Assembly: GCA_964016885.1 (NCBI GenBank)
Contig: OZ024742.1
Location: 203,546,001-203,610,000 of the forward strand
DNA from: Eledone cirrhosa
Lineage: Eukaryota
Length of the DNA stretch: 64,000 nt
Direction of reading: 5' to 3'
The number at the start of each line of letters is the position of its first letter. Within the stretch, counting starts at the first letter, position 1. The notes under the pieces are model-generated. The model was not told the DNA's origin, searched no databases, and worked only from the letters and a program-made list of their open reading frames with translations. Position numbers and translations under genes: made by a program. This document shows positions 46,567 through 58,892 of the stretch, in pieces.

Positions 46567-47377
46567 ACGAAGGAAATGTGGTAAGGAACCAGGTGGACCA
46601 TAACGCACCAAAGTACTCAATACTTGAGGTAGTAGAGTGGGTAATAGGAACCAGTAGGACCCCGACAGCTGAGCTCAAGCCGTTTCGACGGCTAATTCGG
46701 ACTAAATGAAAATTTATCCTGGTATTTAAATAGCCGATCTTCTCAAGGGGTAATTCCATATATGGTCAAAGTGATTGTCAAAAATCAGTAGTAATTCTGT
46801 GGTTGCAAATTAGTAGGGGAGATGGTGGCTAAACCTGCCAGTAGGAGAAAGAGGGGAGGGGTGGAGTAGACCCAATCAAGCGTTGGTAGTGCCAGCTACA
46901 GCTGGGCATGAGGTCAAAGAAGATACAGGGGAGGGGGAGGGGGAGGAAGTCGGAACGGTAGGTAGAACAATGGGGGGTAGAAATATATAGAAAAGCAAAT
47001 AAGTGTAAAGAAAAAAGTAAAGTAAATTATCTTTTTTCTTTACACTTACATTGTTCTACCTACCGTTCCGACTTCCTCCCCCTCCCTCTCCCCTGTATCT
47101 TCTTTGACCTCATGCCCAGCTGTAGCTGGCACTACCAACGCTTGATTGGGTCTACTCCACCCCTCCCCTCTTTCTCCTACTGGCAGGTTTAGCCACCATC
47201 TCCCCTACTAATTTGCAACCACAGAATTACTACTGATTTTTGACAATCACTTTGACCATATATGGAATTACCCCTTGAGAAGATCGGCTATTTAAATACC
47301 AGGATAAATTTTCATTTAGTCCAGAATTAGCCGTCGAAACGGCTTGAGCTCAGCTGTCGGGGTCCTACTGGTTCCTA
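46567..47377. mobile_element. Fold-back PLE 3'-end pair, related to the 3' end of 54519-58056
   Basis: Arms ~46645-46971 and ~47050-47377; left terminus matches the reverse complement of ~57960-58055. Confidence 0.88.
47270..47363 (+). ncRNA. Type I hammerhead with U3-A8 core (mirror copy 46659-46751, -)
   Basis: ACCCC-UUGAGAA-GAUCGGCUA..UAGCCGUC-GAAA-CGGCU-UGAGCUC-AGCUG-UC^GGGGU. Confidence 0.85.
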
Positions 47378-47411
47378 TATATATATATATATATATATAT
47401 ATATATATATA

Positions 47412-47608
47412 TTTTATAGAAGGAGCTTCTACAGGACTAGTACTGTTTCATTCAGATGAAATCTTCAGGAAGCTTCCTGAAGATTTCATCTGAATGAAAC
47501 AGTACCAGTCCTGTAGAAGCTCCTTCTATAAAATAAAAAATTTTACTCTGCCATGTATTGAGTACCTAACTTACTGTGGTTATCCTCGACTCAACCCGGG
47601 GCCTACGT
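47412..47608. mobile_element. Spacer-less fold-back with a hammerhead on each strand (+ copy 47471-47521)
   Basis: Palindrome centred on ggaagcttcc; AGCUUC-CUGAAGA-U-UUCA-UC-UGAA-U-GAAAC-AGUACCA-GUC^CUGUA-GAAGCU. Confidence 0.8.
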
Positions 47609-47821
47609 ATATATATATATATATATATATATATGTTTTATATATATATATATATTTTATATATATATATATATTTTATATATATATATATATTTTATAT
47701 ATATATATATATTTTATATATATATATATATATATATATATATATTTATATATATATATATATATATATATATATATTATATATATATATATATATATAT
47801 ATATATATATAGATATATATA

Positions 47822-48059
47822 TTTCGTTTCTGAATTTGTTTAGCAAGATTCTTTATCTGAAAGCGTGTGTTGAAAACGATATTGTTATACTTTGGCAGGG
47901 TCATGTTGCCAATAAGAAACGCACGCACCAGCTGTTTCACTTCAATTTATTATAATAAATTTATAAATTCCTAAATTTATAAATTTATCATAATAAATTG
48001 AAGTGAAAGCAACTGGTGCGTGTGTTTCTTATTGGCAACATGACCCTCCCAAAGTATAA
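47822..48059. mobile_element. Fold-back of the 3' terminus of the 37136-37947 PLE family, in (TA)n
   Basis: ttatactttggcagggtcatgttgccaat (inverted) and attggcaacatgaccctcccaaagtataa. Confidence 0.8.
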
Positions 48060-48587
48060 TATATATATATATATATATATATATTTATATATATATATAT
48101 ATATAGAGAGATTTATATATATATATATATATATATATATATATATATATATATATATATATATATATATATATATATATATATATTTATATATATATAT
48201 ATATATATATATATTTATATATATATATTTATATATATATATTTATATATTTATATATATATATTTATATATATTTATATATATATATTTATATATATTT
48301 ATATATATATATTTATATATATATATATATATATATATATATATATTTATATATATATATATTTATATATATATATTTATATATATTTATATATATATAT
48401 CTATATATTTATATATATATATATATATATATTTATATATATATATATATTTATATATATATATATATATATATATATATATATATATATATATATATAT
48501 ATATATATATATATATATATATATATAATTGTATGTGTGCGTATAAAGAATATATTCTCAGCTGTCTTCTAGTCAAGCGGTGGGAGG

Positions 48588-48633
48588 AACGGTCCTGACG
48601 AAGGCCAGTTAAGCCTGAAATGCATAGATGGTT
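48588..48633 (+). ncRNA. Minimal type I hammerhead in a ~190-bp (TA)n-flanked insert
   Basis: AACGGUC-CUGACGA-AGGC-CAGUUAA-GCCU-GAAA-UGCA-UA^GAUGGUU. Confidence 0.85.
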
Positions 48634-56828: not shown

Positions 56829-57867
56829 ACGTAAGATTTTCTTATATATTTTTTATCGTCTTCTCTATATTTCCTCATTCCCCCATCCCTTCCTAATCCT
56901 TCCACCCCAGTTCTCCTTCTTTGTCGTCGTTCTTTCCACCTTCTCGCCCACCCCGAGGCAGCCCTTCGGTCCTCCGTAGCCTCAGTACCCCCACCCCCCA
57001 TTCTATGATAGAATTGGCCGACTCCGCTTTTTATAGCAGATGTGCTAGACCCCAGATACTTGCTTTCTTATCTGATTGCTGCCCCATTTCCGTGATTTCT
57101 AGATTTCTTAGTGGTATCTCTGCTTTAGTTTCTCGTATATCAGAATTTTTTTTTTTGGTGTGTGTGTGTGTGTGTGGGGGGGGGGGGGGGAATTGATTTT
57201 TGTATTAATTTTTTCTTATATATCGTAGAGCATTTATGTAGTTTGCATTAGAATTTATGTAGTGTAGCGGTACTCTTATATATCGTATTAGTATTCATTT
57301 TCGGGATTCTGAATTAATATTTCGTATTAGTTTCGGGAATCTGAATTATTATTTCGTATTAGGTTTTTTTTTTTTTTTTTTTTTTTTTTAATATTTTGGC
57401 CCCCTACTTGTTGACCTGTCATTGTAAGATAGATTAGGTCGAGTACTACTGACTAATAACATCCTTTCACTACAATCTCGTATTTAGTATCCCGCCCCAC
57501 CTATTAAACTTTTCTATAGTTTAGCAGTACCAGTGAGAGATTTGATGATTGTGGTAGGGGAATAGTAACCAGAAATTGTGTTTATTTATATTTTTAACAT
57601 TCTTATTTTTCTATATAGATTTACTCCATATAGATCTACTTATTGTTTCGACTTCCTCCCTCCCCCTCCCCCTCTTGACCTCTTATCCTTAGGATTCTGC
57701 TGTAGTCGTCACTTTCAACGCACGACTGCGTTTCCTCTCCCTCTTTCTTCTACTGGCAAGTTCAGCTACCCCTTCCTTCCACAAAATGCAATGATAGAAT
57801 TATGTGTCTCAACAACAAACTTTTGACCAATCTTTGTGACAATCACTTTTACCATATATGGAATATT

Positions 57868-57963
57868 ACCCCCTGAGAAGCTCGGCTATTCATTTACCAG
57901 GATAAAAATGTTCATTTAGTCCAGAATTAGCCGTCGAAACGGCTTGAGCTCAGCCGTCGGGGT
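57868..57963 (+). ncRNA. Hammerhead of the 47270 family, here with a C3/A8 mismatch
   Basis: ACCCC-CUGAGAA-GCUCGGCUA..UAGCCGUC-GAAA-CGGCU-UGAGCUC-AGCCG-UC^GGGGU. Confidence 0.75.
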
Positions 57964-58169
57964 CCTACTCGTTCCTATTACCCACTCTACTACCCTAAGT
58001 ATTGAGTAATTTGGTGCGTTATGGTCCATCTGGTTCCTTACCACATTTCCTTCGTTATATATATATATATATATATATATATATATATTTTATATATATA
58101 TATATATATATATATATATATATATATATATATATATATATATATATATATATATCATTATTATATATA

Positions 58170-58321
58170 TCATTATTTCTGAAGACGGCGTATATATGTG
58201 TTGGTATGTATATTTAATCTTGATAGTTTGTATAATTTTGTATAATTTTGTACATAGATCTGTTGAATATGCATGCCAATTCTAACACATATATATCCTA
58301 GAAACGATCGTTAAATAATGA
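58170..58321 (+). ncRNA. Type I hammerhead with 115-nt stem II hairpin
   Basis: UCAUUAUUU-CUGAAGA-CGGCGUAUAUAUGUGUUGG..CUAACACAUAUAUAUCCUA-GAAA-CGAUCG-UU^AAAUAAUGA. Confidence 0.8.
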
Positions 58322-58533
58322 ACTTTTTTTGTTTAATATAAGGAATTGTTTATTCATTATTTGTTTAATATTTTATATATATATATATATATATTTGATA
58401 TATATATATATATATATATATATATATATATATATATATATATATATATATTTGATATATATATATATATATATATATATATATATTTGATATATATATA
58501 TATATATATATATATATATATATATATATATAT

Positions 58534-58892
58534 TAGAAAGTGAGAGTTTTTTTTACAAAATGAAAAATAACCGAGGTGTCCTATACAAGTGAAAGTATAA
58601 AGAAAAAAATATGAAATCGAAAATGCAACTGGAGTCTTGTTTTTAAAAAAATATATATATTTATTTCGTTCCTTTACCGGTTTCGCAGTTCTTCTGCTTT
58701 TCAAAAGTAGAGTTGAGATGGAGTATCTGTGGTTTTTCTCACATCTGATGTGAGAAAAACCAGACACTCCATCTCAACTCTACTTTTGAAAAGCAGAAGA
58801 ACTGCGAAACCGGTAAAGGAACGAAATAAATATATATATTTTTTTAAAAACAAGACTCCAGTTGCATTTTCGATTTCATATTTTTTTCATTA
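58534..58892. mobile_element. Fold-back insert in (TA)n with U3-A8 hammerheads (58783-58818 +, 58672-58707 -)
   Basis: Axis at 58746; CUU-UUGAAAA-GCAG-AAGAA-CUGC-GAAA-CCGG-UA^AAG. Confidence 0.85.

Follow-up and report, generated by a model that had tools for sequence, protein, structure and literature searches.

We analysed a 64-kb window of the Eledone cirrhosa genome (the whole stretch of 64,000 nucleotides, contig OZ024742.1 of assembly GCA_964016885.1, positions 203,546,001 to 203,610,000), which contains a number of type I hammerhead ribozyme motifs whose core box reads UUGANAA in place of the canonical CUGANGA, so that nucleotides 3 and 8 are U and A rather than C and G. In the active fold of the hammerhead, nucleotides 3 and 8 pair with each other, which positions nucleotide 8 to take part in general acid catalysis, and the RNA is cut after H17. 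The window has ~35% GC and contains many (TA)n tracts as well as numerous insertions, both inverted and tandem. A descriptor comprising helices I-III, NUGANNA, GAAA and UH, with positions 3, 7 and 8 left free, found 26 type I hammerheads, of which 10 are U3-A8, 15 are C3-G8 and one, a weak match that we judged to be chance, is A3-U8. Under a stricter score the window gave 24 matches, compared with none in 18 of 20 dinucleotide shuffles and one and two in the remaining two. An earlier note on this DNA had drawn attention to UUGAGAA and UUGAAAA boxes here, and the scan found these exactly at all of the positions that it named; each motif described below has three helices, NUGANNA, GAAA and a UH site.

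The U3-A8 motifs of the window belong to four families, which we name A to D. The family A hammerhead at 47270..47363 (+) has UUGAGAA at 47275, GAAA at 47336 and a GUC with a predicted cut after 47358; it has a long helix II and a stable helix III, and the hammerhead fold is its minimum-energy fold. Its mirror (46659..46751, -, box UUGAGAA at 46746) is part of the same insertion, a 5'-truncated and inverted element at 46568..47375 between (TA)n tracts, with inverted arms at 46699-46972 and 47049-47322. A further family A hammerhead at 57868..57963 (+) has the box CUGAGAA at 57873, and hence a C3·A8 mismatch; it sits inside the interval covered by the earlier note, yet is absent from it. Family B is represented at 51255..51357 (+), with UUGAAAA at 51261, a palindromic helix III and a predicted cut after 51351, and by a mirror at 49002..49104 (-; box at 49098), ~390 nt downstream of the stop of an open reading frame (ORF); the window copies end in GUU. 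Family C is a minimal hammerhead (58783..58818, +, UUGAAAA at 58786, predicted cut after 58815; mirror 58672..58707, -, box at 58704), with a 4-bp helix II, a palindromic ACCGGU helix III and a helix I of only 3 bp in the window copies, which extends to 4 bp in 45 of 86 copies examined. Both window copies of C score 9.7, below the stricter cut-off of 10.5.

The fourth candidate of the earlier note, in a 568-bp unit, proved to be a U3-A8 hammerhead as well and constitutes family D. It occurs at 23748..23842 (+), with UUGAAAA at 23757, a 9-bp helix I, a long helix III and a predicted cut after 23833, again in tandem at 24316..24410 (+; box at 24325, predicted cut after 24401, giving a monomer of 568 nt), inverted at 23223..23317 (-; box at 23308), and as a separate U3-A8 copy at 7950..8044 (+; UUGAAAA at 7959). 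Canonical C3-G8 hammerheads of another family, E, lie close by (47471..47521, +; mirror 47424-47474; further copy 51522-51576, -) and served as a control. At 10.1-11.1, a U·U replaces G10.1-C11.1 in families B and D, in the element K introduced below and others, and also in canonical E. A mirror and its partner copy belong to one insertion, of which they represent inverted halves, so that they do not count as independent.

Only two of these families are tied to coding elements. A near-complete, frameshifted family A Penelope-like element occupies 54420..58055 (+), with a reverse transcriptase (RT), Cys linker and GIY-YIG endonuclease followed by the 3' pseudo-long terminal repeat (pLTR); its frames (54420-55271, 55376-55834 and 55785-56828, +) were tied to the A loci by tblastn. 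The ORF of family B at 49488..50783 (-) is a C-terminal part, comprising the end of the RT, the Cys linker and a GIY-YIG-like endonuclease. The RT and then GIY-YIG motifs were read in the translations, Pfam and PDB searches having recognised none of the A or B ORFs; the nearest ESM Atlas clusters (scores 0.93-0.97) are animal RT/GIY-YIG proteins, those near the family B ORF having GIY-YIG in 21-27% and RVT_1 in 13-23% of their members. By tblastn over 1.5-kb flanks, ORF pieces lie near the hammerhead at 64 of the 115 family A loci and at 23 of the 30 loci of family B, as against 2 of 50 for C and 2 of 60 for D. Of the endonuclease ends, 15 of the 24 from A and 14 of the 16 from B were found to be followed downstream by the hammerhead. 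The inverted arms and (TA)n flanks of the A and B insertions show the truncated, inverted, microsatellite-associated pattern of Penelope-like elements. The A and B hammerheads terminate Penelope-like RT/GIY-YIG elements, and C and D are non-coding: C copies share at least 0.9 kb of common upstream sequence that is non-coding, and no autonomous partner of C or D was found within the 1.5-kb flanks.

The A and B proteins are 37% identical to one another. In an 18-row tree of RT plus endonuclease, A falls together with a sister element, K (97/97), and B joins a different family (97/95); A and B as one clade was rejected (p-AU 4.9e-7, approximately unbiased test), and with it a single origin of U3-A8 in A and B, unless K reverted. 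A short tree of the endonuclease only gave no resolution of A versus B. A Cys-rich linker between RT and endonuclease, a trait associated with the Neptune clade (PMC8557442), is present and makes A and B candidate members of that clade; the tree contained no reference Neptune proteins. Two further U3-A8 candidates were observed downstream of Penelope endonuclease ends, at L180:5210 (+), by 321 nt, and at L196:8119 (+), by 1573 nt; both are single copies with a candidate helix I only.

Given that the window offers few copies of each family, the standing of the U3-A8 core is best judged from the genome. Counts were made with exact patterns over the ~3.0-Gb genome and are lower bounds; the patterns fixed U4, G5, A6, A9 and GAAA and are hence uninformative on the conservation of these, and figures per 100 refer to the first 100 matches listed in genome order. 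Family A gave 6,773 matches, of which 97 do not have A8 (9 C3-G8, ~43 U3·G8) and 1,606 have A8 without U3 (C3 in 97 of 100), leaving 5,070 U3-A8; 15 of the best 40 genome matches are 100% identical to 47270..47363. Family B gave 260 matches (U3-A8 in 97 of 100), and family C 12,062, with 49 not having A8, 67 not having U3 and none altered at both positions. Watson-Crick pairing at 3-8 stands at ~95% in D, 97 of 100 in B, ~99% in C and 75% in A, and U3-A8 pattern matches amount to ~20,000 over five families. The control family E (21,492 matches) decays differently, with 87 C3-G8, 13 single changes and no U3-A8 per 100, from which it follows that U3-A8 is the source state of A, B and C.

These counts bear directly on the case that the earlier note had set against itself, namely that the families have a CUGANGA consensus from which each U3-A8 copy decayed independently, and also on the possibility that the motifs are chance matches. 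What speaks for either is a set of weak single-copy folding z-scores (A -0.96, B -0.27, C -0.83, compared with -3.08 for D, whose minimum-energy fold has a mispaired helix II), and nothing else. U3-A8 is the majority state and the consensus of each family, the deviants of family C are altered at one position only, the control shows no U3-A8 among the 100 listed, and a shuffled window gives almost no matches. Independent decay or chance is ruled out by the genome counts, and we give it a vanishingly small probability; U3-A8 is the family consensus. Among the Rfam matches listed (150 of 182) no U3-A8 copy matched a hammerhead, and only a canonical 467-bp array matched HH9, at 37.7 bits against a threshold of 52. 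The canonical copies of family E are also absent from the matches listed, so this miss is not specific to U3-A8. The undercount by CUGANGA searches that the earlier note had anticipated is real but modest, since in a 600-kb sample (60 segments, each of 10 kb, taken at round coordinates and for the most part from the four largest contigs) we found 33 hammerheads, 28 of them C3-G8, three U3-A8 and two mismatched; the reversed sequence gave none.

The main evidence comes from family D. Alignment of its copies revealed a third box, GUGACCA, and counting with one anchor pattern in which position 3 was varied gave 1,710 matches with U3 (A8 in 98 of 100), 489 with G3 (C8 in 96 of 100), 247 with C3 (per 100: G8 78, A8 15, C8 4, U8 3, one G8 row being a duplicate) and 13 with A3, none of which has U8. 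Scaled by hand, this amounts to ~1,675 U3-A8, ~470 G3-C8 and ~190 C3-G8, or ~95% of 2,459, compared with ~54% expected for independent columns in a hand calculation for which the copies are not independent events. As copies are not events, we built an unrooted tree of 132 family D rows with the box masked, the rare states being deliberately oversampled. Of its G3-C8 rows, 27 of 28 fall in one clade (SH-aLRT, Shimodaira-Hasegawa-like approximate likelihood ratio test, 99), the 13 C3-G8 rows lie within another (98), and most U3-A8 rows form a third (92), with a few near the base. This implies at least two double changes at 3-8, the direction of which the unrooted tree does not give. The subfamily majorities differ at 40-47 of ~235 columns, so that a matching double change by drift would have roughly a 1% chance each.

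In 70 copies of family D picked by position 3 only (from 80 loci, less five unparsed, duplicates and off-centre matches), 3-8 is paired in 65 (GC 26, UA 25, CG 14), and two pairs of helix I switch in step (CG 35/UA 28 and UA 27/CG 23). Helix cells are paired in 95.2% of 1,532. The fraction of cells paired and the covariation score were unmatched in 500 shuffles (0/500), but the number of covarying pairs was reached by 72 of the 500 and does not beat this control. The control ignores relatedness, and the pattern itself had already fixed helix III as well as portions of helices I and II. In A and D any of the four bases may occupy position 7, with position 8 staying matched. The U3-A8, C3-G8 and G3-C8 clades of D, with the compensatory changes in helix I, are true covariation, and the hundreds of G3-C8 copies likely mean that selection keeps the 3-8 pair. 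A swap to G3-C8 requires two transversions and cannot be a product of AT-biased drift. The family is tandem and retrozyme-like; most of its periods measure 530-571 bp, and each unit is non-coding (longest ORF 32 aa, GC 34.5%) and bears a single type I hammerhead; its monomer, folded as a circle, is 67% paired (z -1.6 against 30 shuffles).

A second tandem family, J, of ~320 bp, came from clustering hammerhead matches in 1.97 Mb of genome DNA (examples at L023:188, +, and L277:2778, -). It likewise holds U3-A8 and C3-G8 sister forms, with 88 U3-A8, 7 C3-G8, one U3·G8 and four mismatched per 100 of 1,062 matches.

Taken together, we consider it probable that these motifs are type I hammerheads borne by Penelope-like retroelements and by non-coding passengers of these, that C3-G8 was swapped in the source elements for U3-A8 (and for G3-C8 in one D clade), and that the motifs can still cut themselves, likely more slowly than canonical ones. 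Self-cleavage is predicted after H17. Read-through transcripts would fold into the three-way junction, in which the 3-8 pair would position the 2'-OH of nucleotide 8 and the backbone would be cut after H17. A and D would cleave as monomers, and B and C, with their palindromic helix III, would work as dimers, perhaps aided by the element protein. In family D, cuts in two tandem units (after 23833 and 24401) would release a monomer of 568 nt in the window and of 530-570 nt overall, which could then be circularised and copied in trans by a Penelope RT/endonuclease into (TA)n tracts. We infer selection for cleavage in these families, and the selection on the 3-8 pair appears real but lax, being strongest in the non-coding tandem families D and J and weak in coding A. 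With D and J paired and A and K tolerant, it would seem that cleavage matters more to the non-coding passengers than to the coding elements.

Several observations weigh against this interpretation. In family A, ~1,560 amplified copies, including that at 57873, carry C3·A8. In a box-masked tree of 105 family A rows these copies are placed as a grade, with older U3-A8 groups on one side of it and younger ones on the other; a U3·G8 group that has diverged further lies at one end (copy divergence 7% for U3·G8, 3-6% for C3·A8 and 1-3% for the U3-A8 groups). A coding lineage thus multiplied ~1,560 times while carrying a mismatch, and probably returned to U3-A8 afterwards. Position 7 is G in 91 of 97 of the family A C3·A8 rows, where a register shift that pairs C3 with G7 may be envisaged; family D has its own 15-row C3·A8 subclade, nested in U3-A8, which has C7, so a shifted register is not general. 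In family D, moreover, helix II is both short and incompletely paired (pairs 3 and 4 are unpaired in 12 and 11 of 70), a competing hairpin exists, and there are only about two double changes, each at the rough 1% by drift given above. B and C show no covariation within the family, and as C→U and G→A both run towards AT, these two families alone cannot separate selection from drift. Among the sister elements, K (examples at L086:2394, -, and L437) has U4A in 23,357 of 23,624 matches, with the box CAGAAGA (C3-A4-G5) and intact helices; either this variant of the core is tolerated, or K has been very successful as an element in spite of a crippled ribozyme. In the sister of B (the L181 family, L459-L483), the 1.5 kb that follow the endonuclease yielded no hammerhead in any of 28 copies. 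From the literature, hammerhead mutants left Penelope insertion in vitro unimpaired (PMC11167929), and in the full pairwise scan described in PMC9901934 strong rescue was seen only for the G-C swap and not for U-A.

The earlier note had proposed that positions 3 and 8 change together and that repeated compensatory change signals selection, and had suggested counting 3/8 combinations per family. The counts bear out the dominance of U3-A8, and the joint change and its reading as selection hold within D and J; they do not extend to A, with its amplified mismatch group, or to B and C, each of which has a single fixed consensus.

Much of this could also be explained if the hammerheads are largely dispensable, U3 and A8 having arisen by AT-biased drift in source elements that were then multiplied by retrotransposition, such that copy number reports the success of the element and not of its ribozyme. 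The mismatched A copies, the fixed U4A of K, the sister of B, the single state of B and C, and the direction of both changes in a window of ~35% GC all fit this explanation, as do the independence of in vitro insertion from cleavage (PMC11167929) and the description of Naiad elements as lacking canonical hammerheads (PMC8557442). It leaves unexplained the G3-C8 clade and matched helix I swaps of D, the C3-G8/U3-A8 sisters in J, and a free position 7 next to a matched position 8. We therefore regard general dispensability as unlikely, though it deserves some weight, and it may hold for A, B or C separately. A folded core could alternatively be kept for a non-catalytic role, for example by offering the Penelope protein a platform on which to bind or prime, with the 3-8 pair selected for the fold. 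The persistence of the helices in K despite U4A would agree with this, as would the report that a Penelope hammerhead was cut only with the element protein and that the main template was uncut RNA (PMC11167929). The 3-8 pair is, on the other hand, described for the catalytically active conformation (PMC3884650), and the UH cleavage triplet is kept in every family, and so we consider such a role improbable. The best reading remains that these ribozymes function, probably at a slower rate, and that the selection acting on them is real but lax.

The window contains several other features of note. A canonical 467-bp tandem array at 40613-45363, with 4 + 6 near-identical copies in opposite orientations and one canonical hammerhead in each, looks like a young retrozyme insertion. 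Two more canonical hammerheads of other families lie at 734-873 (-) and 36931-36986 (-), one of them with a 100-nt helix II arm. Penelope-like endonuclease fragments of other families occur near 39150 (+) and 54190 (-), a hAT transposase remnant at 12728-13768 (Dimer_Tnp_hAT, E 1.9e-6), and broken frames at 59973-63161, the last of which matches a PIF1 helicase (E 1.8e-26), consistent with a Helitron.

If family D is indeed a natural swap series and K runs on U4A, the catalytic core tolerated in vivo is wider than search descriptors assume. Searches by the CUGANGA string miss ~20,000 U3-A8, 470 G3-C8 and 23,000 U4A motifs in this genome, and it is of relevance that the Naiads, described as being without canonical hammerheads, were searched partly by that string (PMC8557442). 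Family D also represents a test set, with three Watson-Crick versions of 3-8 along with wobble and mismatch subfamilies in the same background, for which copy number is a rough read-out of fitness. The coding families tolerate a mismatch or U4A and the non-coding tandem families keep the 3-8 pair, which makes it testable whether Penelope-type elements need a hammerhead, and whether the need is greater in passengers that rely on the release of monomers. A stronger claim, which we put forward tentatively and with some doubt, is that family D holds active C3-G8, U3-A8 and G3-C8 clades, the last (~470 copies) being the first natural G3-C8 ribozymes, that the family proves the tertiary 3-8 pair phylogenetically, A3-U8 being excluded, and that a Penelope element present in 23,000 copies operates with a U4A core. 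We did not find a natural G3-C8 in the literature, a limited negative given that the supplementary alignments of PMC3088659 and PMC4209133 may hold examples of G3-C8 or U4A; natural G3-C8, three-state covariation within a family and the U4A element may be new.

U3-A8 in Penelope hammerheads is itself already known, and the families described here are a further instance. Cervera & De la Peña (2014, PMC4209133) describe it in the Cercyon Penelope-like elements of Schistosoma mansoni, with ~1,300 matches, and also report that minimal hammerhead motifs cleave weakly, as dimers. The elements studied here are like those Penelope pLTR hammerheads in their type I topology, their location in the terminal repeats of RT/GIY-YIG elements and the U3-A8 swap, and in occurring as opposite-strand pairs a few hundred bases apart, with a palindromic helix III here in B and C. 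They differ in number (~20,000 U3-A8 pattern matches in five families), in the long stable helix III of A and D and in the U·U at 10.1-11.1 in B and D, and we found no mention in that paper of the G3-C8 of family D or the fixed U4A of K. Covariation of C3-G8 to U3-A8 was noted in several natural hammerheads by Perreault et al. (2011, PMC3088659), where hits with any core change were excluded from the final alignments; the examples are scattered over taxa, and we found no G3-C8 or single family with several states named among them. Families D and J resemble the metazoan non-LTR retrozymes described by de la Peña & Cervera (2020, PMC7229834), where LTR denotes long terminal repeat, in being low-GC, non-coding tandems whose units each contain a single type I hammerhead and which share their genomes with Penelope elements. 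The unit of family D is longer (530-571 bp compared with ~170-400 nt) and, unlike those retrozymes, has non-canonical cores and commonly inverted 5' halves. In the Penelope hammerhead of Anolis, the cleavage of which needs protein, C3G and G8C each abolish cleavage and the double change partly rescues it (PMC11167929). Such engineered C3G/G8C hammerheads (PMC11167929, PMC9901934, PMC8495972) have the same G3-C8 core as the D clade, with in vitro cleavage partly restored, but they are laboratory constructs, whereas family D carries G3-C8 naturally, in ~470 copies.

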